From an uncultured Methanoregulaceae archaeon (GTDB lineage Archaea; Halobacteriota; Methanomicrobia; Methanomicrobiales; Methanospirillaceae): DNA of 64,000 bases. Positions 17,926 to 48,325 of the stretch are shown here, piece by piece. Position 1 is the stretch's first letter; every line of letters starts with the position of its first letter. Location: contig CAWFSA010000004.1 of NCBI GenBank assembly GCA_963818425.1, positions 188,016-252,015 on the forward strand. The letters are read 5' to 3'. The translations under genes were made by a program, and so were the position numbers. The notes beneath the pieces were generated by a model, which saw nothing but the letters and a program-made list of their open reading frames with translations, did not search any database and was not told where the DNA came from.

Positions 17926-18560
17926 AACATCATTTCGCAATCGGGATCCGATTTTGGAACTGCAATCGCGATCACAATCGCGATCGAAAACCTTTCCGGA
18001 AAAATCAGTAACCGGTTTTCATTTCACAATCGGATCCCGATTTTTGCGGTAAAATCGATCTGCGATTTTCATCTGCAAATCGGATCGCGATTGAAAACCG
18101 GTTTTTTGACCGCAAGTACAGACGGAACGCGAAATCGGATCCTGATTTTCATGTGAAAATCGATCAGCGATTTTGATCTCAAAATCGATCTGCGATTTTC
18201 ATTTCATGCTCTGTAGAAAACATTCGAAATTACTTGACGCTCCAGGGGCTACGCCCCGCCGCTGGGGCGCCCCGGTTGCGATAGTGCTGTATTACCTGTT
18301 AAAAAAATGCGGGAAGTTTCAGGACAGGTAATATTGAGGCATCGCATGCGCCATGAGCCCCCAACGGGGGCAGGGCTGGCGTAAGGGGGGTAACCAAATA
18401 TGAAACAGGTTTTCTACAGAGCATCATTTCACAATCGGATCCTGATTTTAAAAACTGCAATCGCGATCATGATCGCGATTAAAAACCAATCCGGATCAAT
18501 CGCAATCCGATTTTAAACCCAAAAACCGGATCCTGGCTCTTCCGGTAAAATCGTTCCATC
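17926..18560. repeat. Field of short palindromic repeats (AAAATCGATCNGCGATTTT and AATCGGATCCNGATTTT units) bracketed by two ~70-bp direct repeats (17926-17995, 18423-18492)
   Basis: At least seven copies of GATC-centred palindromes sit inside a 2.6-kb non-coding stretch. The two ~85% identical 70-bp segments flank MITE copy 1. Confidence 0.5.
18208..18422. mobile_element. MITE copy 1 (orientation A)
   Basis: The 215-bp element has the TIR GCTCTGTAGAAAAC ... GTTTTCTACAGAGC and is flanked by TCATTTCA on both sides. It matches the other four copies. Confidence 0.6.
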
Positions 18561-18688
18561 CATTTTTTCTCCAGAGCAAAAAAAACCATACCCTTGTTCC
18601 CGCCTTCCCCCCAATGTGACACCTTATAATCCCCACAAACCCAATAATATGCTGCGATCCAGAGTAAAAATCATCGCAGGATCCTGAA

Positions 18689-21257
18689 ATGCTCTCACTG
18701 GATGAACTGAAACCCATTACAGGGACGAATGGTTTAACGACCGGACAGGTCGCGGAGTTCCGTAAAAAATACGGCGCCAATGCCATGACCCCCCCGGTCC
18801 GGGAACCGCTCTGGAAACAGTACCTGGAAAAATTCGACGACCCGATCATACGGATCCTGCTCCTTGCGGTGGCCGTCTCGACGGTTGTCTCGATGGTCAA
18901 GGGCAGCGGACTCCTTGACACTATCGGGATCATCATCGCCATCCTCCTTGCGACCGGCATCGCGTTCTTCAACGAGTACCGGAGCAGCAGGGAGTTCGAT
19001 GTGCTGAATGCCCACCGGGACGATGTCGCGATCAAGGTGATCCGCGACGGGCACCCGACATCGGTTCCATCCCGGGACATCGTGGTCGGCGACCTGATCC
19101 TGCTGGAAGCCGGCGACGCCCTGCCCGCGGACGGATGGGTGATTGCGGCCGATGACCTGTTCTCCGATGAATCGGCATTTACCGGTGAGACCGAGCCGGT
19201 AATGAAGGATCTCCTCGACCGCGTGCTGAAAGGGGCATTCATCACCGCAGGCAAAGGTCATATGGTCGCGGCAGCAGTCGGCGACTCAGCCCAGATGGGC
19301 GTAATCGCCGCATCGCTCGGGATCGACCATGCCACCGCAGACCCCGCTCGAGCAGAAACTGGAGTCCCTGGCCCACTCATCAGCCGCTTCGGGTACGCGA
19401 TGGCCGTCCTCATCTGCAGCACGCTGCTTTATCCGGGGGTTCATGATCGGCGAGGTGACGGGGCTCAATATCGATACCGCAAACAATATCCTCCACTATT
19501 TCATGCTCGCGGTCGTGATCGTTGTCGCTGCAGTACCCGAAGGCCTGCCTATGAGCGTTGCGCTCTCGCTCTCGCTTGCCATGCGGAAGATGACGCGGGC
19601 GAACTGCCTTGTCCGGCGCCTGATCGCCTGCGAGACCATCGGCTCAGCCACGACCATCTGCACGGACAAGACCGGCACGCTCACCAAAAACCAGATGGAG
19701 GTGGTGGAGTCACCGGCCGGGAAACCCGAGAACAGTCAGGATCTCCCGCAGAATCCGGCCCAGTGGATTACGCTCAATGCCGCGGTGAACGGGACAGCAC
19801 ATCTTGAGGAGCGGGACGGGAAGATCATCGTCATCGGCAACTCGACCGAGGGAGCGCTGCTCCGCTGGCTCCGGGAATACCACTACGATTACATGCATAT
19901 CCGCGCTGAGACCCGCACCATCAAACAGTACCTCTTCGACGGTAACCGGAAACGGATGTCCACGGTCGTGGAGATGGGCGACAGGTCATGGCTGCTGGTC
20001 AAGGGTGCCCCGGAGATCGTGGCCGGGCTCTGTACAGAGAAACCGGACCTCACCGGGGTCAGCGCCCTGGCCTCGCGGGCAATGCGGACGCTCGCGTTCG
20101 CCCACAAGGAGGTCACGGGGGGCGACGAGCATGAAACGGGACTGACGTGGGATGGTTTCGTCGGCATCCGCGACCACCTCCGGGATAATATTCCTGAGTC
20201 TGTTGCAACCTGCCGGCACGCGGGAATAAAAGTCAGGATGGTCACCGGGGACAACCCGGAGACCGCCCGGGCGATTGCGCAGGAATCAGGCATCATGCAG
20301 GGCGGCACGGTCATCTCCGGTGCGGAATTCCGCGGGCTTCCGAAAGAAGAGCAGACAAAGGTCTCGCGTAATCTCGATGTGATGGCCCGGGCCGAGCCTA
20401 TGGACAAACTCCTGCTTGTCGAGGCGCTCCAGAGAAACGGGGCGGTTGTAGCAGTGACCGGTGACGGGACCAACGATGCGCCGGCGCTCAAGCACGCAGA
20501 CGTTGGCCTCGCCATGGGTATTGCCGGGACGGAGGTAGCCCGCGAGGCAAGCGACATCATCCTGCTCGATGACTCCTTTGCTTCGATCACGAGTGCTGTC
20601 TGGTGGGGCAGGTCACTGTATGAGAACATCCAGAGGTTCATCCTCTTCCAGCTCACCATCAACTTCTGCGCCTGCTTCCTCGTCTTCATTGCACCGCTCT
20701 TAGGGCTCGCGGAACCCTTCACTATCATCCAGATCCTCTGGATCAATATTATCATGGACACGCTTGCGGCATTCGCCCTTTGTTCCGAGGCCCCGCACCG
20801 CGGCCTGATGAACCATAAGCCGGTACCGCAGGATGCAAAGATCGTCACACCGTTCATGTGGCTCTCCATTATAGTGACGGCGACGTTCCTGATCCTTGCC
20901 GGCCTCCTCCAGCTGGCGACCGGATTCCTCGGGGGTTCAACACCGGAAGAGATAAGTACGGTCTTCTTTGCCGGCTTCATTATGGCTGCGGTCTGGAACG
21001 GGATCAACTGCCGGGCGCTCGACGGGAAGATGCCCCCGTTCTTTAAAGGCAATCCGATCTTCTTTATCGTCATGGGCATCGTGGTCGTAGTCCAGATCGC
21101 CATCGTCCAGTATGGTGGTGCCGTATTTGCCACGGTTCCCCTCTCTGCCACGCAGTGGATAACCATTATCGTTGCCTCCGCAGCGGTGCTCGTGGTCGGG
21201 CTTGTCCTGCGGATCTTTTACGGGTTATTCCGCCACCGGCACGGCCGGAGGGCATAG
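18689..21257 (+). CDS. Cation-transporting P-type ATPase (Ca2+-ATPase-like, P2-type), interrupted by at least 2 frameshifts (about 19340-19440)
   Basis: The motifs TGETEPV, PEGLP, DKTGTLT, TGDN and GDGTNDAPAL are all present. The N-terminal 372-aa ORF and the 642-aa ORF overlap in different frames, with a short third-frame segment (LISRFGYAMAVLI) between them. Confidence 0.75.
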
Positions 21258-21393
21258 TTTTTCCCGGACCTGTTGGTTCCCCCTCCTGCGCTCCCCGTCA
21301 TGCTTTCCCTGATGGTACAGATCCAACCGCAGAACAAGGGAATGCCCCCTTGTTACCGGAAAAAAGGTTCGTAACGTTTTTAAAAAGAAAACG

Positions 21394-24300
21394 GGCGGGA
21401 GGTCAGGAAATACGGTACCCGAGCTTCCGGACCAGAGCAATCATTTCCAGAACCTGCTCTTCCTGCTTATTCGTGAGTTTCCGGCCTTTCTGGATCAGCC
21501 TGCCCATCCTTACGATCTGCATACGCTGGTCCTGCGTAAGCTCCTTGCAATGGTGCGACCATCTGAGCAGATCAAGCCATTGCGCACGGTTGAATGCAAC
21601 ATCCTTTCCACCAACCAGTGGTGCTGCGTCATCAGTATCCGGGGGGAATCCTCATCGTCTTCGATAGTATCTTCGCGGATATTTTCACGGTTATAATGCA
21701 TATCGGAAATGGAGGGAAGATAGTCTTCAAAAAGACTTTCCTCCTGATCAGCTTGACCGGGCAATAAATCCGGCAGCACATCATGTACCGGTTCGGTTAC
21801 CCGTTCCTGGATGATCGATACCCTGGGAATGCCGGCTGACTTTTCCCGGTCATCTTCATCGTCTTCGAACAGGTCCTCGACACTCTGGATATGCGAAGCC
21901 TCCGGTCCGGATACCTTCACCGGATCGATCGCAACGAGAGAGCGGGGGAGAGGATGGATTGCTTCCGGAATGTTGGGAGCTTTCACAATGAGCGAGCGCT
22001 TTTTTATTATTTCTGCTTCCTTTCTCATCCCGGATGACGGTGCCGGCCCTGGCGGCTGTTGCTTTCCGGCAACGGCCTCAAGCCGTTCCTGATCCGTCAT
22101 GTGATCTTCCCACTCATCGGCAAGGGCAACCCGGGCCTGATCGATCTCGGCAGTCAGGGCGGCTGCAACCTGTTCAGCCTCGATCTTTTCCCGGCTCAGG
22201 ACCGTGACCTGCTCTGCAAGGTTCTGGTTCTGCACCTTTGCGGTTTCATGCATCCTGCGCTCGGCACTCAGATCGGCATGCAGGGTTTTGGTCTCCGCTA
22301 CGAACCGTTCGAGTTCCTGCTCCTGCTGCTGCTGCTGGGACAATGCTTCCCTGAGCTGGTCTTCCGATTCCTGCCGGCGAACGGTCTCCTGTTCAAAGCT
22401 GGTTCTTACCCGTTCCAGCTCATCGGCAAGGGAAACGCGCTGCTGCTTTTCTTTCTCCCGTCCTTCTGAGACACTCTCCAGATCCTGACCGATCAGCCGA
22501 ATCTTCTCCTCAGCGAGATGCAGCTTCTCTTCGACTTCTGTTCTTGCGGAAACTGCAGAGTCGAGCTCTTGTTTCGTCTGCTCAAGCAAGGTCGTGTGCG
22601 AGGTAACGGCAGCCCTGGTATTGTCATGAACCCGGAGGAGCTCCCCCAGTTCCCGGTCACGCTGCAGGATTATCACGTTCATGCGTTCTTCGTTGTCTTT
22701 GTACCGGCTCTTTTCCTGATCCAGCTGGCTTTGCAATTCCTTCAGGGACGCAAAAAGCGATTCTGCCTGTACTTCCGCCTTCTCCTTTTCTGCATATACC
22801 CGTGCAAAATCTTCTTTCTGGGAGGTGCTGTTCCTTGTTACTGATTCAAGGGAGGCGTTTGTCTCCGCAAGAGCACGGGAAACGGACGCAAGCTCCTGCT
22901 CTGCGGACTCCCGGGCTGAACGGACCGTCGCAAGTTCAGTGGTGAGTGTTTTTATTGCCTGTTCTGCTTCTTCAAGGAGGGGACGGGTTGTATTAAACCG
23001 GGCCTGCAGGTCAAGAAGGTCCTTCTGTCTTTCCTTCAAGAGAGGTGTTCGTCTCCGCAAGAGCACGGGAAACGGACGCAAGTTCCTGCTCTGCGGACTC
23101 CCGGGCTGAACGGACCGTCGCAAGTTCAGTGGTGAGTGTTTTTATTACCTGTTCCTTTTCTTCAACGTGAGACTTGGCAGTATTAAGGCGGGCCTCCAGC
23201 TCGAGGTTGTCCTTCTTCTTTACGCTCAGGGCTGTGTTCGTTTCCGCAAGAACGCGGGAAACGGACGCAAGCTCCTGCTCTGTGGATTCCCGGGCTGAAT
23301 TAACCGTCGCGATTTCTTCGCTCAGTGTTTTTATTGCCTGTTCCTTTTCTTCAAGCCGGGACCCGGCTGCATCGAACCGGGCCTGCAGGTCGAGAAGATC
23401 CTTCTGTCTTCCTTCAAGAGAGGTGTTCGTCTCTGCAAGAGTACGGGAAACGGACGCAAGCTCCTGCTCTGATGACTCCCGGGCTGAATTGACCGTCGCG
23501 ATTTCTTCGCTCAGTGTTTTTATTGCCTGTTCCTTTTCTTCAAGCCGGGACCCGGCTGCATCGAACCGGGCCTGCAGGTCGAGAAGATCCTTCTGTCTTC
23601 CTTCAAGAGAGGTGTTCGTTTCCGCAAGAGTACGGGAAACGGACGCTAGCTCCTGCTCTGATGACTCCCGGGCTGAATTGACCGTCGCGATTTCTTCGCT
23701 CAGTGTTTTTATTGCCTGTTCCTTTTCTTCAAGCCGGGACCCGGCTGCATCGAACCGGGCCTGCAGGTCGAGAAGATCCTTCTGTCTTCCTTCAAGAGAG
23801 GTGTTCGTCTCTGCAAGAGTACGGGAAACGGACGCAAGCTCCTGCTCTGATGACTCCCGGGCTGAATTGACCGTCGCGATTTCTTCGCTCAGTGTTTTTA
23901 TTGCCTGTTCCTTTTCTTCAAGCCGGGACCCGGCTGTATCGAACCGGGCCTGCAGGTCGAGAAGATCCTTTTGCCCTGCCTCAAAGGTCACCCGGAAAGA
24001 TGCTTCCGCGTGTTCCTTTTCTGAGGTTACCTTATTCAGGTTCTCTTCGGTATTCTGGAGACGGGAACGTTCCGACTCCAGTTCTTCCTGGAAGCGGGTA
24101 CGCTCTGATTCAGAATCTTCCTTAAGCCGGCTCAAAGCGGCAGCTTGCTCTTTGGCCGTATCTTTCAAGTCGTTGATGATCCCCGTCAGGTCCTGTTCAG
24201 ACTGGGTTTTTGCAAGCGGTACCTGCATTCGAGCTCCTGGAGAACTTCCTGTGCCCGGTTCTTTTCCGCACCAAAATTAATCTTCAGCTGCTCATATTCG

Positions 24301-32917: not shown

Positions 32918-32983
32918 CAGAAATAATCTTTTTTTTAAAAACGGATATGAATCGTCAGATTCACATCAGAATTATTATAAATT

Positions 32984-33198
32984 GCTCTGTAGAAAACCTG
33001 TTTCATGATATATGATCACCCCCCTTGCGCCAGCCCTACCCCCGTTGGGGGCGGGGGCGCATGTGATGCCTCGGCATTACTTATACAAAAACTCTCTGCA
33101 TTTTTTGTAAACGGGTAATACGGCGCTATCATAATGGGGCGCCCCAGCGGCGGGGCGAAGCCCCTGGAGCGTGTAACTCTAAATGATTTCTACAGAGC
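32984..33198. mobile_element. MITE copy 2 (orientation B)
   Basis: 215 bp with TIRs GCTCTGTAGAAAAC / ATTTCTACAGAGC, flanked by TATAAATT on both sides. Confidence 0.6.
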
Positions 33199-33401
33199 GT
33201 TATAAATTGAAAAAGGGATTTCAAATACAAAAAAGTAATTATTTTTACTTTTAATCACGATGAACCCCGCCGCCCCGAGGGGCGCCCCCGCGGCGGATCA
33301 GTGAGGGAATTAGAGAATGCGTGAAACCTGCATGCCCCGCCGTGCCTCGGAGAAACCCTGACAGGCGGGGAGCCCTCAGTATAATCGACATGGTTTAACT
33401 G

Positions 33402-34238
33402 TTAATACCCGGTGGCATAATAATACCCGCCATCTTCCCGGACACTGAGCGGGACATGGAACAGGTCACCGATTTTTGCATCGGTCAGCATCTCAGCTTT
33501 GGGACCGTCGCCGCAGAACCTGCCGTCCTTCATCAGGACAACCCGGGAGATCTCCGGGATAATGTCATGGAGGTTGTGAGTTACGAGTATGATACCGGTA
33601 CCGGACCGGGCGATCTTCCGCAGCGTCTCACGGAACGTATGGAGTGCGTGGAGGTCGAGACTGTTGGTCGGTTCATCAAGGATAAGCGTCTTCGGGTTGT
33701 GGACCAAGGCCCTGCCGATGAGAAGCCGCCGTGACTCCCCCGAGGACATTGCCGTCATCGGGCGGTCTTGTAAGTGCCCGATCTCCAGGAATGCGAGGAT
33801 CTCATCTGCCTTCCGTTCCATTGCGGGGGTCACTGACCGGTTGAAGAGCCCGACACTGGAGAAGAACCCGGAGAGGATGACCTCTTTGCCGGTGATGGGG
33901 CGGGTGAAGGTATACTGGAGATCGTTTGACACGATCCCGATAGTGGACCGGAGCTCGAACACGTCCCACACATCCTTCCCATGCATCCTGAAGATGACCC
34001 CAACGTCACCCGCTGGGGGATAGAATTCCCGAAGAATGGTCCTGATAAACGAAGATTTACCGGCCCCGTTGGGGCCGAGGATCGCGATGTTCTCGCCTTC
34101 GCGGATCGTGATCGAAAGGGAATCAAGGACTTTTTTTATGCCGTAAAAGACGGTCACCTTCTCAAACTCCAGCAGGGGTTGTCCGTTAGCAGGGCTGCCG
34201 CGGTTCGAAGCGGTCATGACCCGGTCTCCGGTAACCAT
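33402..34238 (-). CDS. ABC transporter ATP-binding protein
   Basis: Walker A GPNGAGKSS, signature MSSGESRR and Walker B LILDEPT. The start is placed at the internal Met MVTGDR. Confidence 0.65.
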   Translation of the reverse strand: MVTGDRVMTASNRGSPANGQPLLEFEKVTVFYGIKKVLDSLSITIREGENIAILGPNGAGKSSFIRTILREFYPPAGDVGVIFRMHGKDVWDVFELRSTIGIVSNDLQYTFTRPITGKEVILSGFFSSVGLFNRSVTPAMERKADEILAFLEIGHLQDRPMTAMSSGESRRLLIGRALVHNPKTLILDEPTNSLDLHALHTFRETLRKIARSGTGIILVTHNLHDIIPEISRVVLMKDGRFCGDGPKAEMLTDAKIGDLFHVPLSVREDGGYYYATGY

Positions 34239-34332
34239 AATCTGCAGGCAATCCAATGGGGGGATCGCTATCCTGAAGGGGGGCGGATGCGAAAGCCCGG
34301 TCAACACCAAAACCACAAGAGGATAATTCACG

Positions 34333-36118
34333 TTATAACCGTCCCAGCGCAATCACAAACCCCCGCATATCGCCGTTTTCCGTACAGGTCAGGGTTCCCC
34401 CGGCACGCTCGCAGAGGCTGGCGAGGAAACTCCGTTTTTGGGGGATTTTTTCTGAACTGACAGTGGAACAATTCCCGGAAAGGGTGACAAACACCCACCG
34501 GTCTTCCCGCCGGATCGTGATCGCAATCCGGTCAGACCCGGTACCGACCAGATCTTCAAGGATATAGGTGACCAGGTCCGCGAAATGATCCTGGTCAACA
34601 GATACGGGAAGCGTCCGGTTTTTTGTATCAAAGGAAAATTTCACATCCTCAAGCAGGGGCCGGGTACCGATCCGGGAGAGCAGGATCTGGATGAACGCTG
34701 CATTGTCATCGGCCGAGGATAACAGGTCCTCGTCCGAACAGGACGGAACCGAAAGCCCGGTCACGATCGCCTCGATCACGGGAACAAGGTCGCATTCGCA
34801 GAGTTCACTGGGGGGGTTGAACCCGCGGAACATGATGATATAATCCGATAACAGGCGGCCGGCCCGTTCTACCAGCGTGGGGTCGATGATGCGCATCACC
34901 TCCTCTTTTTTAAAAGCCCGGTCAAGTTTTGCAATAACCTGCCCGGCTTTCAGGGCAAGGTAAATCGAGTCCCGGGAACGCCGGTGGTGTTCCTCGGCAA
35001 ACGCGGAGAAGGCTTCCAGGAGTTCGTCAATGGTATCTGCGGGGATCAGGGCACCCATCCGGTCCGCTAGAGCGGACTCGCCAAGTTCCTCCATAACATA
35101 AGAGACATAATACAGGCGCCCTGCCATGATTGTGAACAGCTCGTTCACCTGTTCAATACAGTCCTCGGCAAATGCTGCTGCCTGTTCTGCACGCTCGCGG
35201 TTCAGTTCAGCGATATCCGAGAGTGCCTGTGCATCCACCCTGACCGCGGATAACATCCGGGCAGCATCGGGTGCCGTGACCATTCTCCCGTGTCCGGGAC
35301 AGACCGTTGTTATCCCACCACCGTCAATCACGGCCAGCATATGACCAAGAGAATGTATCAGAGCCTCCTGGTCCCACCCGCACATGCCGGCAACACCCGG
35401 GTTTGCGGCAAAGAGAATATCCCCGATAAAGAGCAGTCCGCCGATCCGGATGCAGATGCTGTCCGGGCTGTGGCCGGGAGCATGCCAGAGCTCGAGTGCC
35501 GGACCGGCACCAAACTCCAGCCGCGCATAAGGGAGTCCGCCACCGGCCTCATTCCGGCCATACGTGATCGTCACCGTTGCTCCGTTAGGGAAGGCCATTG
35601 ATACCGCGATGCCGGTATTCGCCTCCCACGAGCGGGGGAAGAGGTTCAGGTCTACCTTCATCGGCGGGTGGGTTTTTCCCTGAAGTTCCGCCGTTGTCAG
35701 CTTTGTATCGCCGCGTTCCATGGCTTCACCCCCCTGTTCCTGCACGGCAAAGACCGCAGTTTCCGACGACGCAAAGGCCGGGATGGGTAAAAACACCGGC
35801 AAAATGATCGATATGCGCGTGGGTCAATATCACGAAAACAGGGCGATCCTGTTCCCGGCGGCATTCCCCGATAACGAGCGCCAGTTGTTCTGCCTGCTCA
35901 GGAAGACCGCCTGGATCGATCAGGAGGATGATATCAGGCGTTGCGATCAGGTAAGAATTGGAGGAGATGGTATCGATCTTTCGTATGAGCGGGTAAACCC
36001 TTGCCCCGTCCGCTCCCGGGACCGGATGCCAGGCAAGGGAGGTTAAGGTGTCACTACCACCCGGCAATGGCTTCTCCCTCAGAAGGACAGATGGAAAATA
36101 TGGAGGTAAACCCTGCAA
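34333..36118 (-). CDS. MBL-fold metallo-hydrolase fused to a C-terminal regulatory-type domain, with a frameshift near 35730-35800
   Basis: The N-terminal ORF has ILTHAHIDHFAG (HxHxDH). The 489-aa ORF continues the MBL fold (HAPGHSPDS, CPGHG) and adds a roughly 300-aa C-terminal domain of uncertain type. Confidence 0.55.
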
Positions 36119-36434
36119 GCTTGAGGATCTTCAGGACTTCTGCTGACAGGCAGCAGAGAGCAAACCGGTCCGCGGGGTTCTTGAGCTTCTTTGCCGTAGC
36201 GAGCAGCACACGGAGCCCCCCGCTGCTTATGTAGGAAACAGAGGAAAAATCCAGCAGGATCTTCCGGTTCCCGTTCTCAATTTCCCTGTTGATGGCGTGT
36301 TCAAGTACCAGTGCTGTCGAAGTATCGACTCTTCCGTTTACGGACAGGATAGTGGCACCTTCCCGGTTCTGTGTTTTTATCTCCAAAATAATCCCACCGC
36401 TCTGGTCAGGTCCTGGTGTGCAGGATCTTTTCAT
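36054..36434 (-). CDS. STAS-domain anti-sigma-factor antagonist-like protein (SpoIIAA/RsbV-like)
   Basis: 126 aa with the pattern ...ATILSVNGRVDTSTALVLEHAI...ILLDFSSVSYISSGGLRVLL. Confidence 0.75.
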   Translation of the reverse strand: MKRSCTPGPDQSGGIILEIKTQNREGATILSVNGRVDTSTALVLEHAINREIENGNRKILLDFSSVSYISSGGLRVLLATAKKLKNPADRFALCCLSAEVLKILKLAGFTSIFSICPSEGEAIAGW

Positions 36435-36561
36435 AGATGTCGGGTTTTTTTTCAGATAATCCTATCCATACACCAGGTTTTGGCAGCATGCCGGTCTATC
36501 CTGATAAGAACGTGACCCTTTATGAGAAACCGTGTGCAATTCCTATAGTACCGGGTGCCAG

Positions 36562-37948
36562 ATGACGGAGTCAACGATTGTTTCATCAATGCTTGTCCTC
36601 CTGCAGCTCATATGCGTCATCATCGTGGTTGCCTACCTCCTCACCCGTAGCCGGATATTTCCGGAGATCCTTGACGGCCATCCTGCACTAAAGACCCGAG
36701 ATTATTCTCGTCCTGCTCTTCGGTATCCTCTCAATCTACGGCACCTTGAGCGGGATCGAGTTTCTGGGAGCATATATTAATGTCCGCGACCTCGGGCCGA
36801 TGCTCGCCGGGCTGCTCGGTGGCCCGTGGGTGGGGCTCGGGGCTGGACTTATCGGAGCAGCGCACCGGATGACTCTTGGAGGGTTCACCGTTTATTCCTG
36901 TTCGCTCGCCACGGTTTTTGCCGGGCTCTTCGGCGGTCTCATCTGGCTGTTTTACAAGCGGAAATTTCCCGGTATCATGATTGCGGTGCTCTTTGCCATC
37001 CTCATGGAAGGGTTCCACATGGCACTCACGCTCATTATGTGCCGCCCGTTCGATCAGGCGCTTATGGTGGTATCAACCGTAGCTTTCCCGATGATCATGG
37101 CCAATGCCGCGGGAATGTTTGTCTTTGCATTCATGGTCGAGAACCTTCAGAACGAGCGGAAAATGCAGGCTGAACGGGATACCCTGGTCCGGGAGATGGA
37201 ACGCAAGAACACCGAGCTTGCCATTGCAGCAGAGATCCAGCAGAGTTTTCTTCCGGATACCATTTCCCAGATTGAGGGGTACGAAATCGCCGCCAGGAGC
37301 GTGATGGCAAAAGAAGTTGGCGGTGACTTTTTCGATGTCATCCCGCTCGAAGTCGTCCCGCTGGGCAAAGGCCAGCTCGGGATCATGATCGCGGATGTCT
37401 CCGGCAAGGGCATTCCTGCTGCCCTGTTCATGGCCCTCTCCCGGATCGTGGTCCGGGTCAATGCAACATGGTACGGGAGAAGACCGGCTGCAGCCATCCG
37501 GGATGCCAACACCATCATCGCAAACGACTCGAAATCCGGCATGTTCGTTACGCTCTTTTACGGGTTCCTGGATTCTGAAACCCATACCCTGACCTATGTC
37601 AACGCCGGGCATAACCCGCCGATCCATTTCAATGCAGGGGATGGCACACTCACGGAGCTCGCTGCAACCGGTATTGCGATGGGTGCGCTTTCGGATTCAG
37701 TATATTCACAGGATATCGTGCAGATGGCACCGGGCGATATCCTGGTGCTGTACACTGACGGTATCACGGAAGCGGAGAATGCAGATCTTGAGATGTTCGG
37801 CCTTGAACGACTGGAAAAAATAATCCTTGCATCATCCCGGTTACCTGCAAACGAGTTGATCCAGGAGATTCTCAATGCCGTCAGGTGCTTTACCGGGGAC
37901 CACCCGCAATCGGATGATATAACGCTGATGGTAATCAGGAGCCTTTAG
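36562..37948 (+). CDS. PP2C-type serine phosphatase (RsbU/SpoIIE family) with an N-terminal 5TM sensor domain, with a frameshift near 36700-36750
   Basis: A 5TMR-LYT-like N-terminus is followed by PP2C motifs (GGDFFDVIPL, IADVSGKGIPAALFMA, YTDGITEA, SDDITLMVI). Confidence 0.7.
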
Positions 37949-37951
37949 ATC

Positions 37952-38368
37952 ATGGCCCAATCCTTTGAGATGGCAATCGGATCGGATATCGAAAAGATCC
38001 CTGCCGTTTCCCTGCGGCTTGAAAAAGCAATGGGAGTAAATGGTTTCTCTGCCGAAGAGATTCTTGATACCCAGCTTGCCGTCGAAGAAGTCATCACCAA
38101 TATCATTATCCACGGGTATAAAAAAACGGGTTATGAGATTCATCTCTCCTGCCGTTTCACCGGTAATCGTATCGAGATTAAGATTGCTGATTCTGCACCA
38201 CGGTTCGACCCGCTCTCGATCCCGGAACCGGAACTTGACGGGGATATTGATGAGCGGAGAATCGGCGGGCTGGGGATATACCTCGTGCGCCATGTCATGG
38301 ATGAGATCTCGTACCGGTACGAGAACGGCAGGAATATCCTGACCCTGGAAAAGAGAAGATCGTCCTGA
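37952..38368 (+). CDS. Anti-sigma regulatory factor-type serine kinase (RsbW/SpoIIAB-like, HATPase_c)
   Basis: 138 aa with the patterns AVEEVITNIIIHGY and IGGLGIYLVRHVMDEI. It lies 3 nt after the phosphatase stop. Confidence 0.75.
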   Translation: MAQSFEMAIGSDIEKIPAVSLRLEKAMGVNGFSAEEILDTQLAVEEVITNIIIHGYKKTGYEIHLSCRFTGNRIEIKIADSAPRFDPLSIPEPELDGDIDERRIGGLGIYLVRHVMDEISYRYENGRNILTLEKRRSS

Positions 38369-38529
38369 AATCAGGCATTCCTGAAGGTATTCCTGATATA
38401 TGCGACCCCGTTCTTTGGTTTTTGCAGGCGGGTGCTGTCGAATTCCGCGTAAGAGGGAGGGGAAAATGTTGAGGTCAGCTGCGAAAGTCGGTTGTTGCCT
38501 CCCTTCTCGTTACCGGGATTCTGATGAAT

Positions 38530-38665
38530 GCCATATCTCATGAGAGATGTGGCAGAGGAAGGTTGGAAAACTTCCTCATATCGAAGGTCATCAGACCCGA
38601 GGAAGGAGAATGCCGCAGCTCATCGGAGATGTGGCAGAGGGAGTCTGGAAAACTCCCTCTTGTTA
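38530..38665. repeat. Two ~40-bp direct repeats, each with a 7-bp-stem hairpin (GAGGNAG-NTTGGAAAAC-CTNCCTC)
   Basis: gagatgtggcagaggaaggttggaaaacttcctc and gagatgtggcagagggagtctggaaaactccctc lie 79 bp apart in a non-coding gap. Confidence 0.3.
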
Positions 38666-38819
38666 AAAAGTCTTCAGCCTTGAGACAGGAGAAGACCATC
38701 GGGTTTTCGACCGAACCGAAAGGATTCTTCGACCCGTGTGCCCGGAAAAACTGCCGTAATGCAAAAGGCAGGGACAATCAGTTACGCACTTCCATAAACG
38801 GGGTCTGGGATGAGGGCAT

Positions 38820-39663: not shown

Positions 39664-39714
39664 TCAGAGGGTATATCCCCCGGTTCAAAAAACCGGGAAT
39701 ACTCAAAAAAAACT

Positions 39715-39944
39715 GCTCTGGAGAAAACCTCTTTTCATAATTATGATAACCCCCCCTTGCGCCAGCCCTGCCCCCATTGGGGGGCTCATGGCGCATAGTG
39801 ATACTTCGGCATTGCCTGTACAGGAAATTTCTCCACGATTGTGTACCGGTAATACGGCACCATCGCAATCAGGGGATGCCACGAGCGTGCGGGGGCGGAG
39901 CCCCCGAGAGTGTCATAGTTGGTATCAAATGATTTCTCCAGAGC
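39715..39944. mobile_element. MITE copy 3 (orientation B, most diverged)
   Basis: 230 bp with TIRs GCTCTGGAGAAAAC / ATTTCTCCAGAGC, flanked by AAAAAAAAC on both sides. Confidence 0.5.
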
Positions 39945-40279
39945 AAAAAAAACAATTCACTGTTTTTATATGCAGGGGGAACGGGCTATCCAGGGAGACG
40001 AGGCGGGGTCCGGATCAGAGGAAAGGATCCATTATGCTGACCCTTTAATCCCTCCCCGTCAGGGTTAACCCGCCGGCATCCCTGCAGCACCGGGCAGTTC
40101 TTCTGAAAACCGGAGAGGAGACGCCGTACGCACTCACGGAGACCAAAAGCACATTTTTACCATGTGCCTGCGGGGCAGAGAAGCAAAAGGAACTGCCGAT
40201 AATAGTATACGTTTTATCATTGCGAGATCAAATAGAGATCAATAGATAACGGGGGATTTTCCCGATCAGGTGATTTTTT

Positions 40280-42060: not shown

Positions 42061-42126
42061 CCTCTGTTACCTCAGTACAAGTGTATGTTATTAAAGAGAA
42101 AACCAAGGTATATTTTATAAAATTCT

Positions 42127-42343
42127 GCTCTGGAGAAATCATTAAGAGTTACACGCGCCAGGGGCTTCGCCCCGCCGCTGGGGCGCCCCAATTATGATGG
42201 CGCTGCATTACCCGTTTACAAAAAACTAAGAGAGTTTTTGTAGAGGTAATACTGAGGCATCACATGCGCCCCCGCCCCCAACGGGGGCAGGGCTGGCGCA
42301 AGGGGGGTAATCATATATCATGAAACAGGTTTTCTAAAGAGCA
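42127..42343. mobile_element. MITE copy 4 (orientation A)
   Basis: 217 bp with TIRs GCTCTGGAGAAATC / GTTTTCTAAAGAGC, flanked by AAAATTC on both sides. Confidence 0.6.
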
Positions 42344-42395
42344 CAAAATTCACAAAAGAATACCGGGCTGTTTTTTCACAGATTCCCGTACCGGT

Positions 42396-42692
42396 TTATG
42401 ATGCGGGCCTCTTTTTTTCTTCAACCGCTGCAAGTACTTTTCCCTTGACGTCATGAGGGAGGTTCAGCCCCTCCAGTGCCCGCGACAGGACAAGCCGCGC
42501 CATTTCCTGTCCTTCGGGCGTTGAGAGGTACGTATCCATGGTCCTTTTACCTTCAGGGGATGCCAGGTAGTTCCGAATGGTTTCCTGTCCCTTGGGCGAT
42601 GCGATATATCCTGCGATCATCCCCTGCATGCAATCGAGCTGTACCATAACCTGGCTCCAAATACCTGAGCAGTGTGGATCGGAATTCCCCAT
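42396..42692 (-). CDS. Small hypothetical protein with three ~13-aa repeats (ASPKGQETIRNYL / ASPEGKRTMDTYL / STPEGQEMARLVL)
   Basis: 98 aa, lying 34 bp downstream of the nitroreductase gene. Confidence 0.3.
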   Translation of the reverse strand: MGNSDPHCSGIWSQVMVQLDCMQGMIAGYIASPKGQETIRNYLASPEGKRTMDTYLSTPEGQEMARLVLSRALEGLNLPHDVKGKVLAAVEEKKRPAS

Positions 42693-42725
42693 AAAACCGC
42701 CGGCATCATGAAAGGAATACCCGCA

Positions 42726-43400: not shown

Positions 43401-43505
43401 CCTAGGACAGTTTTATATCCGGGCGGGAACTTGAAGGTTGCTGATGAGGACAAGGATCTCCTGCCGGGAATGGGTCAGGGAACCCGCAACCTTCAGGAAC
43501 CGCAA

Positions 43506-44102
43506 TTATTTTCGTTCTGCGTGAAGAACACCCATGACACCGAGGATGTCATGGCAGGGCTTCCGGTCGATCTCGAAATCATAGAAGCGGCCGATATAGT
43601 CAAGAAGGGCCGGGTCCGGAGGTCCGCTGATGGGAGGGGTGTGGATCTCCATCTCAATACGGCGGACATTCCGCAGCTCGCAGGGGTTGATGAGCCATTC
43701 GGCACCTTCGCAATCACATTTTAAAAAATCACACCCGCCGCTCATCGTAATAAGGTCTTTGAGCGGGTACGTGGGAGCGACAACACGACAGTCGTCCCAG
43801 CAGATCTCCGCTGGTTTCCCGTTGCCGAGTGCACCGGCGATTACCTGAACGGAAACATTGTTTGCGCGGATATTTTCAAGGAGCAGCGGGGTGGTCACCG
43901 GTTCCACCGCGGTGACATGCCCGCCTATTCTCGCAGCCCGGATACAGAATCCGCCAACATTGGCACCGATATCAAGGACCCGGTCATCGGGCCGGATATC
44001 ATCGAACCGGTACTCGGGCACCGAGGTTATCTGGCGATAAGGTGTGGCTGCAGCAGAGAAAACTATATCCGGTTCTTCAGAAAAGAAAGTGCGGGACGGC
44101 AT
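43506..44102 (-). CDS. FkbM-family SAM-dependent methyltransferase
   Basis: Carries the motif VLDIGANVGGF. Confidence 0.6.
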   Translation of the reverse strand: MPSRTFFSEEPDIVFSAAATPYRQITSVPEYRFDDIRPDDRVLDIGANVGGFCIRAARIGGHVTAVEPVTTPLLLENIRANNVSVQVIAGALGNGKPAEICWDDCRVVAPTYPLKDLITMSGGCDFLKCDCEGAEWLINPCELRNVRRIEMEIHTPPISGPPDPALLDYIGRFYDFEIDRKPCHDILGVMGVLHAERK

Positions 44103-44116
44103 CTTTGAACCTTTAC

Positions 44117-44983
44117 CTACCGGATCATGCCTTCTTTTTTGATAAAGGTCCCGTCAGCATATTCCTGGTAGGCACGGTGCAGTTCCTCGCGGGTGTTCAT
44201 GACAATGGGGCCGCGCCATGCTACCGGTTCTCCGATGGGTTTTCCGGATAAGAAGAGAAAGCGTATTCCGGGACCAAACGACCGGACCCGGAAGGAAGAG
44301 CCGTCGCCGAACAGGATAAGGTCCCGGTTGCCCATACGGTGGCCTTCCTTTTCATCAAACGTCCCTTCACCGCCAATGATATAGGCGAGTGCAGTGTGAC
44401 CGGGTTTTACCGGGTGTTTAAACGACGTATCCGGGCCGAGCGTTATATCCAGAAATTCCGGGTCTGCCACAATATCCCGAACCGGCCCGTCGATACCGTT
44501 TACCCTGCCGGCGATCACGCGGACACTGATATCATTGCGGGGCTCAAGAACCGGGATTTTATCACTTTTTATTTCCTGGTACCGCGGATCCATCATTTTG
44601 CCGGCCCGGGGGAGGTTGACCCAGAGCTGGAACCCGCCCATGCGGTCATTGACCGGCCCCGGCATTTCCTGGTGAATGATCCCGGAACCCGCTGTCATCC
44701 ACTGGACATCCCCGGCGCTGATGCTGCCGGCATTTCCCATGCTGTCTTCATGGTCCATGGTCCCTTCAAGCATGTAGGTAACCGTCTCGATACCCCGGTG
44801 CGGGTGCCGGGGAAAACCGGCAAGGTAATCCTCCGGCTTCTCTGAACGGAAGTCATCGAGCATAAGGAACGGATCGAATTGCGGCACTTCATAATACCCG
44901 AATGCCCGGTGCAACCTGACACCGGCCCCTTCCACCGTTGCATATGCCCTGATCACGCGCTCAACTGCCCGCACCTGCTCCAT
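44117..44983 (-). CDS. Pirin-family cupin protein
   Basis: 288 aa with N-terminal cupin His/Glu ligands (FPRHPHRGIETVTYMLEG...H.D) and a typical pirin C-terminal cupin. Confidence 0.8.
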   Translation of the reverse strand: MEQVRAVERVIRAYATVEGAGVRLHRAFGYYEVPQFDPFLMLDDFRSEKPEDYLAGFPRHPHRGIETVTYMLEGTMDHEDSMGNAGSISAGDVQWMTAGSGIIHQEMPGPVNDRMGGFQLWVNLPRAGKMMDPRYQEIKSDKIPVLEPRNDISVRVIAGRVNGIDGPVRDIVADPEFLDITLGPDTSFKHPVKPGHTALAYIIGGEGTFDEKEGHRMGNRDLILFGDGSSFRVRSFGPGIRFLFLSGKPIGEPVAWRGPIVMNTREELHRAYQEYADGTFIKKEGMIR

Positions 44984-45113
44984 AATGAAGGAACAGGAAG
45001 TGCCGGCTCATTAAGATATGGGTGGCTGTCACTATCAGTCATCCACCGCCAGGGTCGCTCTCTGTTTACAGGAATCTGTTAATACGAGGAGAGGGCGTAC
45101 GTATCCGGTAGCT

Positions 45114-46037
45114 ATGGGTTTACAAGACCAGCTTGCGGACAAACTCCCGGCAGAGGTATTGCCGTATGTGTCCGACCATTTCGAGGTCATCGGGAACATA
45201 GCAGTACTCTCCCTTCCTGCTGAACTGGACCCCTACAAACAAACGATAGCACAGGTTATTGTTTCGCGCCGGAAGAACATCACGGTCATCCTCAACAAGA
45301 AGGAAAAGGTTTCAGGCGATTCACGCACGGCCCGGTATGAAGTCCTGCGGGGGAAGACAACGGTCACGGTGCACCACGAATCCGGGTTTGCGTACCGTCT
45401 CGATGTCGGCAGGGCGTTCTTTTCAACCCGCATGGCACATGAACGGAAACGGGTGACCGGCCAGATTGGACCGGGTGAACGGGTGTATATCCCTTTTGCA
45501 GGGGTCGGACCGTTCGTCATCCCTGCCGCGGCACGGGGGGCGGAGGTAGTTGCCGTAGAAAATAATCCCGATGCGTACCGGTACCTTCGTGAAAATGCCG
45601 CACTCAACCATGTTACTGAAACCTGCCATCTCCTTTTGGGTGATGCTTTCGATACCGGACTGTCTCCCGCACAAGGAATTTAACCGGATCATCATCCCGA
45701 CACCCTACGGGATGGACCATGCGCTCGAAACCTTCCTCCCGCTCCTTGCAAGGGGGGCAGGGTCCACTTCTATACGTTCAAGGCAAAGGAACAGATCCCC
45801 GGTCTTATCGCTGCGTATGAAGGAAAAGGGCTCACGGTCACCTATTCCTCCCGCTGCGGGAACGTTGCACCCGGGATCAGCCGCTGGGTTTTTGATATGA
45901 CCCTGCCCACCGGAAGCCCGTCACGGGATACCCGACAGAGGGAGAACAGTCCAGGTCTTCTCCACTCACCGGTAACTGATGGTAACGGTTCGGTACTAAA
46001 AAACCAGAGAGATAGCATGATATCCGAAGAAAAATAA
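45114..46037 (+). CDS. tRNA (guanine37-N1)-methyltransferase Trm5/Taw2 (Met-10+) family, with about 2 frameshifts (about 45660, 45760); the 3' end is uncertain (45900 or 46037)
   Basis: The N-terminus has FEVIGNIAVLSLP. The class I MTase core has IPFAGVGPFVIPAA. The C-terminal part (NRIIIPTPYG…) and then (VHFYTFKAKEQ…YSSRCGNVAPGISRWVFD) lie in shifted frames. Confidence 0.5.
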
Positions 46038-46054
46038 CTCCTAATGATCGAGAG

Positions 46055-47980
46055 ATGAAGAACGGGAAGGTCACGATCGGTCTTATCCAGATGAGCGTGG
46101 AGAATGACCGGGAGGCAATGCTCAAAAAAGCATTAGCGAGGGTGGAAGAGGCAATAAAAGCCGGTGCAGACATCATCTGCCTTCCCGAGCTCTACCGGAC
46201 CCGGTATTTCCCCGGCATATCGGAGGTGATACCTTTTCTCTGGCCGAAACTGTCCCGGGCGAGTCCACCCATTTTTTCTCAAGGATAGCAAAGGAGCACC
46301 AGGTTGTCATCATTATCCCGCTGTACGAGAAGGCTCCTGACGGGAACTTTTACAATTCGGCGGTTGTCATCAACACGGACGGCACAACGAATATTCCTTA
46401 TCACAAAGTCCATATCCCGCAGGACCCGGGTTTTTTTGAGAAAGGATATTTCTATCCCGGGAATTCCTACCAGGTCATTTCCACGCAGTTTTGCCGCATC
46501 GCGGTCCTTATCTGTTACGACCAGTGGTTCCCTGAAGCCGCCCGCTGCGTTGCTCTTGAAGGGGCAGAGATCATCTTCTATCCGACCGCCATAGGGCATC
46601 CGACAGGCGACATTCCCTTTGAAGGAGACTGGCAGGACGCGTGGGAACTGATCCAGCGGAGCCATGCCGTTGCAAACAGTGTCCACGTAGCCGCCGTAAA
46701 CCGTGTCGGGCAGGAAGGGGCCTGCGAATTCTTTGGCGGGTCCTTTGTGTGTGATGCATTCGGAAAAATCCTTGCGCATGCCACTGACCGGGAGGAGATA
46801 CTCCTGAGCACGGTGGATCTCTCCATGAACCACGAGGTCCGGGAATCCTGGGGATTCTTCCGGAACCGCAGGCCGGACACGTACGGGAAAATTTCCGTGC
46901 CGTTCCCCGGAGAATCCGGTGTATTCCCGGCCCTTCGCGAAGGGGATACCCCACAGAACCGGGGGTTCCATATGCCGGCCGAGTGGGAACCCCACGAGGC
47001 TGTCTGGCTCTCGTGGCCCCATAACCAGACGACCTTCCCCCACCTTGCCGAAGTAGAAAATGCCTATTATGCCTTTATCCGGGCAGTCCATGGAACAGAG
47101 CGGATCGAACTTTTCGTCCCTACTGCGGTCATCCACCGTAAAGTGAGGGCACGGCTCCGCGAGATGGACGTGGACCTCTCGCAGCATTATTCTGCATACC
47201 AGTGAATATGCCGATATCTGGATGAGGGATTATGGCCCGACGTTCGTGATCAACCGCGTCCTGAATAAAACTGCCCTGGTCCGGTGGAATTTCAATGCAT
47301 GGGGTAACAAGTACGAGAACCAGATTGCGGACGGGAAGATGCCCCATGTCATGAACAGGCGTCTCTGTCTCCCGATGTTTGAGCCGGGCATTGTGCTGGA
47401 AGGCGGGTCTATCGATGTGAACGGGCGGGGAACGGTACTCACCACCCGTGCCTGCCTCCTCAACCCCAACCGTAACCCGTTGTTATCTGCCGGCCAGATA
47501 GAGGATAAACTTAAAAGTTACCTGGGGGTGGAAAAGGTGATCTGGCTGAACGAAGGGGTTGTCGGCGACGATACCGACGGGCATATCGACGATATTGCCC
47601 GTTTTGTCGGGCCCTCGACGGTCGTATGCGCCTATGAGACCGATAGTTCCGATGCGAATTTCAAAGCCCTGCACGATAATTACGAGATCCTGCAAAGATC
47701 AAGCGACCAGGACGGAACCCCCCTCACGGTCATCAGGCTCCCCATGCCGGCAAAAGTCACCGACAGCGATGAGCGGTACCCGGCGAGTTACACGAACTTC
47801 TATATCGGCAATACGGTAGTGGTCGTTCCCGTCTTTGCCGACCCGCATGACGCGGAAGCGCTGCGTATCATTCAGGAGATATTCCCCGACCGCACGGTTG
47901 TAGGGATCGAAGCCCGGGCACTGGTTGAAGGGTACGGGACATTCCATTGTGCTACCCAGCAGCAGCCGCGAATCGTCTGA
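46055..47980 (+). CDS. Apparent fusion of N-carbamoylputrescine amidase (CN-hydrolase, AguB-like) and agmatine deiminase (AguA-like), with frameshifts near 46225 and 47190
   Basis: The nitrilase-superfamily N-terminus (GLIQMSV...ICLPELYRTRYFP) and body (…IAVLICYDQWFPEAAR…) run in frame into the AguA N-terminus (HMPAEWEPHEAVWLSWPHN) with no stop. The AguA C-terminal part (MRDYGPTFV…GTFHCATQQ) is in the 47222 frame. Confidence 0.6.
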
Positions 47981-48107
47981 TTCCTTATGACGGGGCACTC
48001 AAAAAAAATGTTCGCCCTCTGATGGAAAAAGGGGCTTCATCCACGCAGATAAAAAATGTGAAATGCAGTGAAGAGGTTTCATACCAGAAAAGAACGGCAT
48101 TTTTTTT

Positions 48108-48325
48108 GCTCTGGAGAAAACCAGTTTCATGGTATATGATTACCCCCCTTGCGCCAGCCCAGCCCCCGTTGGGGGAGGGGGCGCATGTGATGCCTCGGTA
48201 TTACCTATACAAAAACTCTCTCGCATTTTTTGTAAACGGGTACTACGGCGCTATCATTATCGGGGCGCCCCCGGCGGCGGGGTGAAGCCACTGGAGCGTG
48301 TAACCCTGAATAATTTCTCCAGAGC
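48108..48325. mobile_element. MITE copy 5 (orientation B)
   Basis: 218 bp with TIRs GCTCTGGAGAAAAC / ATTTCTCCAGAGC, flanked by ATTTTTT(T) on both sides. Confidence 0.6.

Follow-up and report, generated by a model that had tools for sequence, protein, structure and literature searches.

MITEs of an uncultured Methanoregula archaeon and an IS5-family element that very probably mobilises them

Miniature elements of the kind considered here are known from several archaea and bacteria. The archaeal MITEs, such as SM1-SM4 of Sulfolobus and those of haloarchaea, are small, non-coding, multi-copy and intergenic, with terminal inverted repeats (TIRs) copied from a resident insertion sequence (IS) and target-site duplications (TSDs) of the length that this IS makes. 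The Correia elements of Neisseria are likewise short, TIR-bounded and intergenic repeats, which form long hairpins and duplicate the dinucleotide TA, and an influence on neighbouring transcripts has been suggested for them; we know of no partner transposase identified in their case. Elements mobilised by Y1 transposases have, to our knowledge, neither TIRs nor TSDs. Our literature search found no description of Methanoregula MITEs, while archaeal MITEs in general are mentioned in PMC13343696. The features listed for the IS5/ISH1 subgroup of IS are a length of 900-1150 bp, an 8-bp direct repeat (DR) and 1 ORF (table row for ISTth7, PMC6352166).

An earlier note had described five repeats as a MITE family in the window, which is the whole stretch of 64,000 nucleotides of DNA that was analysed. 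According to our analysis these repeats, which belong to an uncultured Methanoregula archaeon, are very probably MITEs and as such non-autonomous DNA transposons, mobilised by an IS5-family transposase. The MITE interpretation is supported by termini shared in sequence and polarity, a common 8-bp TSD, dispersed copies in 20 species, empty sites and an intact transposase ORF. From the sequences we further infer that the transposase acts on the MITEs in trans, in either a cut-and-paste or a copy mode, and that the IS is present in the window's genome.

Elements of the window and their target sites

The five copies were recovered within ±1 nt of the positions given in the earlier note, the true ends lying one base further out on each side (TGCTCTG…CAGAGCA), and, as that note had stated, three of them (copies 2, 3 and 5) have one orientation and two (copies 1 and 4) the other. 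In addition to these copies, the window contains a sixth same-ended element of 808 bp and the relic of a second GC-rich repeat module.

17771-18578, no strand assigned: 808-bp non-coding element; termini TGCTCGGGAGAAAAC … TTTTCTCCAGAGCA as in the MITEs; perfect TSD AAAAAAAC at 17763-17770 and 18579-18586
18207-18423, + strand: MITE copy 1, 217 bp, within the 808-bp element; perfect TSD TCATTTCA at 18199-18206 and 18424-18431
32983-33199, - strand: MITE copy 2, 217 bp; perfect TSD TTATAAAT at 32975-32982 and 33200-33207
33258-33378, no strand assigned: relic of the second GC-rich repeat module ("module B", CCCCGCCGCCCCGAGGGGCGCCCCCGCGGCGG…), here without recognisable termini
39714-39945, - strand: MITE copy 3, 232 bp, the most divergent; perfect TSD AAAAAAAC at 39706-39713 and 39946-39953
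42126-42343, + strand: MITE copy 4, 218 bp; TSD TAAAATTC at 42118-42125 versus CAAAATTC at 42344-42351, 7 of 8 positions alike
48107-48326, - strand: MITE copy 5, 220 bp; flanks ATTTTTTT at 48099-48106 and GATTTTTT at 48327-48334, with a common 7-mer offset by 1 nt

The copies (nhmmer E-values from 1.5e-56 to 2e-73) align with one another over their full length, the homology ending exactly at the inverted termini, and the flanks of different copies are unrelated to one another. Clear TIRs, as claimed before, are present in all five copies in the form TGCTCTG(G/T)AGAAA … TTTCT(A/C)CAGAGCA, in which the G/T variant at TIR position 8 covaries with its partner position at the opposite end. With up to 2 mismatches allowed, the window has 17 occurrences of the TIR motif versus 2.17 expected and a maximum of 7 in shuffles. 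At 217-232 bp the copies lie within the size range of MITEs, which are shorter than about 600 bp and lack the capacity to encode a transposase. The pairwise identity, previously put at about 85-90%, reaches this level in copies 2, 4 and 5 (88-92%) and is lower for copy 1 (78-81% to the others) and copy 3 (71-77%); a divergence of 8-29% among the window copies suggests that most of the insertions are old.

The statement that all copies are intergenic needs one correction: copy 1 is nested in the 808-bp element and thus sits inside a second mobile element, not in ordinary intergenic sequence. The interior of this host element is an array of short GATC-rich repeats, and similar arrays were found in eight other Methanoregula loci. 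Module B matches 25 loci, and in other genomes it is found inside ~450-bp elements with the same termini as the MITEs.

Direct duplications of AT-rich sequence do flank the copies, although their length is uniformly 8 bp rather than 7-9 bp as had been reported. They are perfect for copies 1-3 and the 808-bp element and nearly so for copy 4 (7/8), while the flanks of copy 5 have the 7-mer in common. These repeats stand under careful alignment, and dozens of copies in other genomes are likewise surrounded by perfect 8-bp AT-rich duplications. When the window and the other loci are taken together, 18 distinct elements with these termini (TIR-A) have perfect TSDs, which are 85% A+T, and flanking 8-mers with at most one mismatch were obtained for 33 of 141 candidate end pairs versus 0 in a displaced-flank control.

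Empty sites in relatives, which the earlier note had named as a way to confirm the TSDs, were found for copy 3 and, by way of a paralogous repeat unit, for copy 1, and both keep a single copy of the target. Removal of copy 1 together with one TSD yields GATTTTCATTTCACAATCGGATCCTGATTTT, which matches the repeat unit at about 18013-18043, and the empty site of copy 3 is in the relative L091. Copy 2 has no counterpart in L091, where the syntenic intergenic region measures 32 bp versus 466 bp here, the footprint not being that of a clean excision. At the intergenic spot occupied by copy 4, the locus L035 holds a copy that is oppositely oriented and differs in its far flank. This copy was rejected as an orthologous insertion and could represent an independent insertion or a rearrangement. 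The locus L063 was discarded as an empty/filled comparison since synteny breaks at the element, leaving no clean site.

An IS5-family element with the same ends

In agreement with the earlier note, which had reported no transposase in the window, a tblastn search of the window with the partner transposase gave no homolog (best E-value 1.4). The IS with the same TIRs that this note had envisaged as the autonomous partner was found in related genomes (L075, L092/L093 and L094-L096), where same-ended IS5-family elements of 997-998 bp contain one DDE transposase ORF. In L075 (638-1634) a single frame is open over the entire element, and its product matches Pfam DDE_Tnp_1 (PF01609) at 2.4e-18 as well as NCBIfam NF033579 (IS5 family) with 188.7 bits versus a cut-off of 140. 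The TSD register of this IS copy is blurred by an A/T run, and its start codon is TTG or GTG, not ATG. Two more IS insertions have perfect 8-bp TSDs, namely GAATAAAT around a copy of 998 bp and TTAAATTG around a copy of 997 bp. Transposase homologs number 944 at E <= 1e-20, several of them named as IS5 family transposase of Methanoregula sp. The DDE residues, as read from the transposase sequences rather than mapped onto a solved structure, are contained in AIDSSGF, VMDRGYDS and YPRRQLVENKFSVLK, and the Y-x2-R-x3-E-x6-K motif is present in the intact transposase ORF.

On the left, the MITE terminus TGCTCTGKAGAAATCAT is similar to that of the IS, TGCTCTGTAGAAATCCT, and the right ends are identical at 17 of 17 positions. 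Altogether, 13-17 terminal bases are identical between MITE and IS, with matching left/right polarity, and the two have no other similarity. The proteins P0189 and P0190 do not differ until the end of …EVFYRA, the translation of the right TIR, and diverge beyond it; they therefore represent two insertions of one recently active IS. The transposase ORF reads through the right inverted repeat and stops only in the flanking DNA, which results in variable C-termini and lengths of 304-400 aa. The two insertions are identical and probably belong to the same genome as the window, outside the window itself, the link to this genome being circumstantial.

According to the proposed mechanism, the DDE transposase of the IS, made elsewhere in the genome, would bind both MITE ends and either cut the element out or copy it. 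The element would then be inserted into an A/T-rich 8-mer, typically an oligo-A/T tract downstream of genes or between convergent genes, via cuts staggered by 8 bp, and repair of the gaps would produce the 8-bp duplication.

Several other candidates for a longer or autonomous relative were rejected. The presumed long element of L029 (2016-3474, 1459 bp) has a right "TIR" that is a poor chance match and a 207-aa ORF without family, and the long end pairs in L028 and L011 enclose ordinary genes between unrelated copies. Multi-copy ORFs in the 613 kb of loci turned out to be housekeeping paralogs only.

The palindromic core and alternative explanations

The terminal ~15-17 bp of each MITE are the inverted repeats of the ~1-kb IS, and the part between them is a GC-rich imperfect palindrome of ~155 bp without relationship to this IS. 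The self-complementary nature of this GC-rich interior, already remarked upon in the earlier note, is reflected in folding energies of -88 to -91 kcal/mol (MFE), the z-scores being -4 to -5 for either strand. In a set of 28 copies collected independently of the search motif, conservation of the core equals that of the TIRs, the variable portions being the subterminal and the apical ones. The same core is found in ~450-bp composites and in a second MITE family of about 315 bp with 8-bp TSDs and other termini (TIR-B, GGGTAAAGTGT…ACTTTACCC). An apparent pair of TIR-B ends in the window (2934-3902) is a chance match that encloses RpiA and a MarR-like gene.

The strong conservation of the core and the fact that a MITE family with different termini contains it as well go beyond what the transposition model alone explains. 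Together with the stable fold and the position of four of the window's five copies, which follow a gene or lie between two convergent ones, they are compatible with a core that is functional itself, as a small RNA, a terminator or regulatory element or a protein-binding cruciform, so that the backbones merely spread it and the copies matter to the host. We consider this improbable, since the copies gave no Rfam match at the gathering score and only chance-level matches at E <= 10, and since the two strands behave alike. The mean MFE by strand is -71.2 versus -70.2 kcal/mol (p = 0.08, n = 75), and in the Watson-Crick-only consensus structure used for the strand test G-U accounts for 274 and A-C for 287 of 4908 cells, an even split that points to a decaying DNA palindrome and not to an RNA selected on one strand; compensatory change is seen in few pairs. 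RNAalifold on MAFFT/HMM alignments of all subfamilies was left out of this test since it yielded a poor consensus (12-15 pairs) and a one-strand choice. Moreover, the motif is restricted to one archaeal family and missing from viral contigs, and a close relative lacks copy 3 at the corresponding site. The earlier proposal of structured small RNAs transcribed from the copies thus finds no support in either the Rfam search or the strand-symmetric pairing. Most likely, the core has no cellular role and behaves as a DNA palindrome that is exchanged as a module among MITE backbones. It seems unlikely, though worth stating, that the core is an independently selected module, either cruciform or protein-binding DNA or an element of a transcript from either strand, that was captured by at least two backbones with the unrelated termini TIR-A and TIR-B; if so, the Methanoregula MITEs would be vehicles spreading a functional cassette through intergenic terminator regions.

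A different transposase as the agent of mobility was considered because GGCTCT-like ends and 8-bp duplications are found in several IS families. Termini similar to GGCTCTGTAGAAA are those of IS6100 (GGCTCTGTTGCAAA…), ISL3 members (GGCTCTTC…) and the ISH4 group (CGCTCTT), each of which generates 8-bp duplications, so that a transposase of the ISL3, IS6/IS26 or IS1595/ISH4 group might move the MITEs while the ends of the IS5-family element are alike by convergence. This is very unlikely, given that the IS5-family element agrees exactly with the MITEs in the 13-17 terminal bases of either end and in polarity, and has an 8-bp TSD and a host of the same genus, whereas no ISL3, IS6/IS26 or IS1595/ISH4 element with these termini was found in the 613 kb of Methanoregula loci, where the elements that combine these ends with a TSD are all either non-coding or of the IS5 family. 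ISL3, IS6/IS26 and IS1595/ISH4 were accordingly dropped as partners once the IS5-family element with the exact termini had been found. It is extremely unlikely that the copies are not transposons at all but segmental duplications, or REP/PATE-like hairpins that owe their spread to recombination or to a Y1 (IS200/IS605-type) transposase. Their GC-rich hairpins and intergenic location look superficially REP-like, but REP/PATE elements are recognised by the lack of TIRs and TSDs, both of which are present here. Furthermore, the homology stops exactly at the inverted termini, every copy has its own 8-bp duplication of a different target, and the flanks are unrelated, with empty sites that keep one target copy. 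Mobilisation of the MITEs by the IS5-family transposase is hence the explanation that we favour.

Distribution of the family and comparison with known systems

Further copies elsewhere, as predicted by the earlier note, are numerous: the strict internal motif was found at 90 loci in 20 species genomes or assemblies, all of them from Methanoregula or Methanoregulaceae, with at least 22-23 loci in each of two MAGs, and many of the loci in other genomes have perfect 8-bp TSDs. No copy of the motif was found in viral contigs. Same-ended elements with TSDs fall into size classes of about 200, 440-460, 506, 687 and 808 bp, all of them non-coding, and the 64-kb window itself accounts for 5 copies and 1 larger element. 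Many contigs of one Illumina MAG terminate inside a MITE copy, which points to these repeats as a cause of breaks in assemblies from short reads. With an HMM of the family, such breaks could be flagged and contigs scaffolded, and filled and empty sites could serve as population markers. Since the preferred targets are oligo-A/T tracts downstream of genes, the location of archaeal termination signals, the insertions could also alter read-through.

With these results a defined MITE/IS pair, which represents an ordinary kind of mobile DNA, is available for Methanoregula, a peatland methanogen genus represented almost exclusively by metagenome-assembled genomes. Similar to REP/BIME sequences with their RAYT (Y1) proteins, the Methanoregula MITEs are GC-rich, intergenic, multi-copy hairpins, but they have TIRs of a kind absent from REP/BIME sequences and a target duplication that these do not make. 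They share with Correia elements the TIR-bounded, hairpin-forming and intergenic character, and differ from them in the 8-bp TSD and the identified partner IS; in addition, their strand-symmetric folding and pairing gave no evidence of a function at the transcript level.

The partner IS is similar to the members of the ISH1 subgroup (ISH1 of Halobacterium salinarum and ISTth7 of Thermus) in its length of 997-998 bp, 1 ORF and 8-bp TSD (features listed in PMC6352166), a placement based on general features (length, ORF, DR) and not on phylogeny. It differs from this subgroup in that its transposase runs through the right inverted repeat into the flanking DNA, and the window holds only non-autonomous derivatives. 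Finally, the window copies resemble, by description, SM1-SM4 and the haloarchaeal MITEs in being small, non-coding, multi-copy and intergenic and in having IS-like TIRs and TSDs, while host lineage and partner family differ. In contrast to those archaeal MITEs, the interior of the Methanoregula MITEs is not a deletion derivative of the IS, with which only the 13-17 terminal bases are shared. An interior that is not derived from the IS and is common to MITE families with different ends would represent an exchange of modules among non-autonomous elements.

Copies of the element and their target sites

Reading and alignment of the five stretches in the window showed one repeat family of 217-232 bp whose homology ends abruptly at both edges (TGCTCTG(G/T)AGAAA … TTTCT(A/C)CAGAGCA), and an HMM made from the five copies recovered all of them (E = 1.5e-56 to 2e-73), so that the five-copy family described in the earlier note was borne out with small corrections. 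The terminal motif, allowing up to 2 mismatches, occurs 17 times in the window compared with an expectation of 2.17 and at most 7 in any of 100 shuffles. Among these occurrences, the two at 17772 and 18577 bound a sixth, larger element.

Elements with MITE termini in the window (MITE coordinates take in an extra terminal T/A; TSD, target-site duplication)
18207-18423, +, MITE copy 1, TSD TCATTTCA
32983-33199, -, MITE copy 2, TSD TTATAAAT
39714-39945, -, MITE copy 3, TSD AAAAAAAC
42126-42343, +, MITE copy 4, flanks TAAAATTC/CAAAATTC
48107-48326, -, MITE copy 5, flanks ATTTTTTT/GATTTTTT
17771-18578, 808-bp element, perfect 8-bp TSD AAAAAAAC

The TSDs of copies 1-5, previously given as 7-9 bp, read uniformly as 8 bp. 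The former identity value of 85-90% was too generous, since only copies 2, 4 and 5 are that similar to each other (88-92% pairwise), while copy 1 shares 78-81% and copy 3 71-77% identity with the others.

Empty sites, proposed earlier as confirmation of the TSDs, were found for copies 3 and 1. A JGI metagenome contig (L091) with ~87% nucleotide identity to the window and the same gene order reads GGGATTACCAAAAAAAGTTCATTGTTTTG at the site of copy 3, where the window has GGGAATACTCAAAAAAAAC, the MITE and AAAAAAACAATTCACTGTTTTTA, and thus carries a single target that is duplicated in the window. For copy 1, which sits within one unit of an array of short GATC-rich repeats inside the 808-bp element, deletion in silico of the copy and one TSD yields GATTTTCATTTCACAATCGGATCCTGATTTT, near-identical to the adjacent intact unit (~18013-18043); this paralogous unit serves as an empty site within the window. 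Copy 2 is also missing from L091 (intergenic region of 32 bp vs 466 bp in the window), with no clean footprint because the window additionally contains a module relic there. This relic of the GC-rich module B (CCCCGCCGCCCCGAGGGGCGCCCCCGCGGCGG…, 33258-33378) adjoins copy 2 and matches 25 loci, in which it lies inside ~450-bp elements with MITE termini. The ~4.6 kb from an ABC-transporter gene to a META-domain gene (34193-38814) are likewise missing from the otherwise syntenic L091, a difference that would represent either an insertion in the window or a deletion in L091.

Genomic surroundings of the insertions

Copies 2, 4 and 5 lie between convergent 3' ends, those of Band_7/ABC transporter genes, of an unnamed gene pair and of agmatine deiminase-like/cation efflux genes, respectively. 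A small gene is followed by a hairpin and an A-run and, ~50 bp downstream, by copy 3, and the 808-bp element is followed after 110 bp by a frameshift-split P-type ATPase gene. Judged from these gene contexts, oligo-A/T tracts in gene-distal intergenic DNA are the favoured targets. The P-type cation ATPase gene (18689-21257, +) is divided between an ORF at 18689-19807 and a second one, overlapping it in another frame, at 19329-21257; as the break falls within the E1-E2 domain, either the gene is a frameshifted pseudogene or the assembly is in error here.

The GATC-rich arrays (window 17900-18540; their units include TTTCATTTCACAATCGGATCCCGATTTT and AATCGCGATC) also occur in several Methanoregula genomes (loci L010, L019, L020, L033, L034, L044, L045 and L055), and MITEs have repeatedly inserted into them. 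Just upstream of the 808-bp element, a 53-nt sequence (…CTTCGAGYRAAACATCCACGAGAACAAGGAGTGAAACT) is present three times (16977-17029, 17571-17623 and 17643-17695), each copy terminating in a Shine-Dalgarno-like GGAGTG; these repeats may be leaders of tandem small ORFs. In another species, a locus (L035, 3741-3954) carries a MITE in opposite orientation at the same intergenic spot as copy 4, next to an ortholog (~81% identical) of the window gene at 42396-42692 and bordered on its far side by a GATC-repeat array. It could be an independent hit at a hot spot, or it could date from an old insertion with subsequent rearrangement.

Elsewhere in the window, a tRNA gene (62601-62768, -), not detected by ARAGORN, is interrupted by a long intron matching the C/D-box sRNA sR3 (61.8 bits vs a gathering score of 41), the arrangement of an intron-encoded guide RNA found in archaea; it identifies the window as archaeal. 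A 189-bp unit repeated six times in tandem (22841-24086; copies 62-83% identical; AT skew strongly negative) lies inside a 405-aa ORF (23011-24228, -), whose matches in Pfam, all weak and of coiled-coil type, suggest that it probably encodes a protein with 63-residue repeats. The GC content of 60001-62000 is 0.42 (window mean ~0.54), and a 323-aa ORF at 60209-61180 had no Pfam match.

A palindromic core shared with a second family

GC-rich and imperfectly palindromic, the ~155-bp core of the MITE has two side hairpins (GGGGCTTCGCCCC and GCCCCCAACGGGGGC) and a fold energy of -88 to -91 kcal/mol on both strands (z-scores of -4 to -5). The suggestion that the copies are transcribed as structured small RNAs found no support, as an Rfam search of the core returned no family and neither strand was favoured: the mean MFE across 75 copies was -71.2 vs -70.2 kcal/mol between strands (p = 0.08), and in a Watson-Crick-only consensus structure, in which 75% of 4908 pair cells were canonical, the non-canonical cells were balanced (274 G-U vs 287 A-C). 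Such strand symmetry of pairing fits a decaying DNA palindrome, unlike an RNA selected on one strand.

The same core occurs in ~450-bp composites bearing module B and in a second MITE family, whose termini differ (GGGTAAAGTGT…ACTTTACCC) and whose copies have 8-bp TSDs of their own (TTTCCTTT and TTTTTTTT, for example).

Second MITE family, ~315 bp, ends GGGTAAAGTGTAATTTTAACCCCTGA … TTAGGGGCTAAGTTGATACTTTACCC
L079, 4985-5300
L073, 3946-4248
L068, 113-429
L042, L047 and others

We read this occurrence in elements with different ends as an exchange of modules between non-autonomous elements. A less favoured alternative is that the core is functional in its own right. Transposition alone leaves unexplained both the sharing with the second family and the composites and the conservation of the core: in 28 copies that had not been picked out by the search motif, it is as well conserved as the termini, whereas variation is seen in subterminal and apical parts. 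The shared core is the sole feature that merits follow-up.

Distribution among Methanoregula and the IS5-family partner

A strict 30-nt internal motif, scanned against one genome per species (185,579 species), matched 90 stretches in 20 assemblies, all of them uncultured Methanoregula or Methanoregulaceae MAGs, two of which had at least 22-23 matches each. The window's own genome is not among these loci; the viral contigs searched contained no MITE copy. The loci include 40 full-length copies with the same termini, the majority flanked by perfect AT-rich 8-bp TSDs. The flanking repeats held up, with at most 1 mismatch between flanking 8-mers in 33 of 141 candidate end pairs vs none when the flanks were shifted by 10 bp; the 18 perfect TSDs have an A+T content of 85%. 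Elements with these ends and an 8-bp TSD fall into size classes of about 200, 440-460, 506, 687 and 808 bp. Taken together, the interpretation of the five-copy family as MITEs is supported. MITEs that have an IS partner are well known, also in archaea, and this Methanoregula family appears to be without prior description in the literature searched.

None of the short elements across 613 kb of loci has coding capacity, and the window contains no homolog of the partner transposase (best tblastn E-value 1.4), in agreement with the earlier note. The autonomous partner that it proposed to search for was found in related genomes as an IS5-family element with MITE ends and an 8-bp TSD. At 638-1634 of locus L075, a 997-bp element with these ends has a single frame open from end to end, and its product matches Pfam DDE_Tnp_1 (2.4e-18) and the NCBIfam IS5-family model NF033579 (188.7 bits vs a cut-off of 140).

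Further insertions of the partner IS
L092/L093 (GCA_028679125.1), 998 bp, TSD GAATAAAT
L094-L096, 997 bp, TSD TTAAATTG

The left ends are alike (TGCTCTGKAGAAATCAT in the MITE vs TGCTCTGTAGAAATCCT in the IS) and the right ends identical over 17 bases (AGGTTTTCTACAGAGCA), with no match between MITE and IS beyond the terminal sequences. With the L075 product as query, a database search gave 944 proteins (E <= 1e-20), of which the top 120 show identities of 77-92%. Several entries carry the name IS5 family transposase [Methanoregula sp.], and the majority come from ~1-kb contigs, as is typical of collapsed repeats. The motifs AIDSSGF, VMDRGYDS and YPRRQLVENKFSVLK, read directly from the sequences, correspond to the DDE residues and the Y-x2-R-x3-E-x6-K signature. 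With no stop codon within the IS, the ORF continues across the right inverted repeat (…VFYRA) and on into the flanking sequence, so that each insertion gives a protein with a different C-terminal tail (protein lengths of 304 to 400 aa in P0121-P0240 and P0189/P0190). Two of these transposases, P0189 and P0190, are identical through 306 residues to …EVFYRA, the translated right terminal inverted repeat, and diverge right after it, and thus represent a single, recently active IS inserted at two sites. Both proteins and the window protein P0001 are each a single-member NCBI+ENA entry on a large contig; the evidence placing the partner IS elsewhere in the window's own assembly is circumstantial and not proof. 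In general features, namely its length, single ORF and 8-bp repeats, the partner IS resembles the ISH1 subgroup of IS5, for which the table row with ISTth7 gives 900-1150 bp, direct repeats of 8 bp and 1 ORF (PMC6352166).
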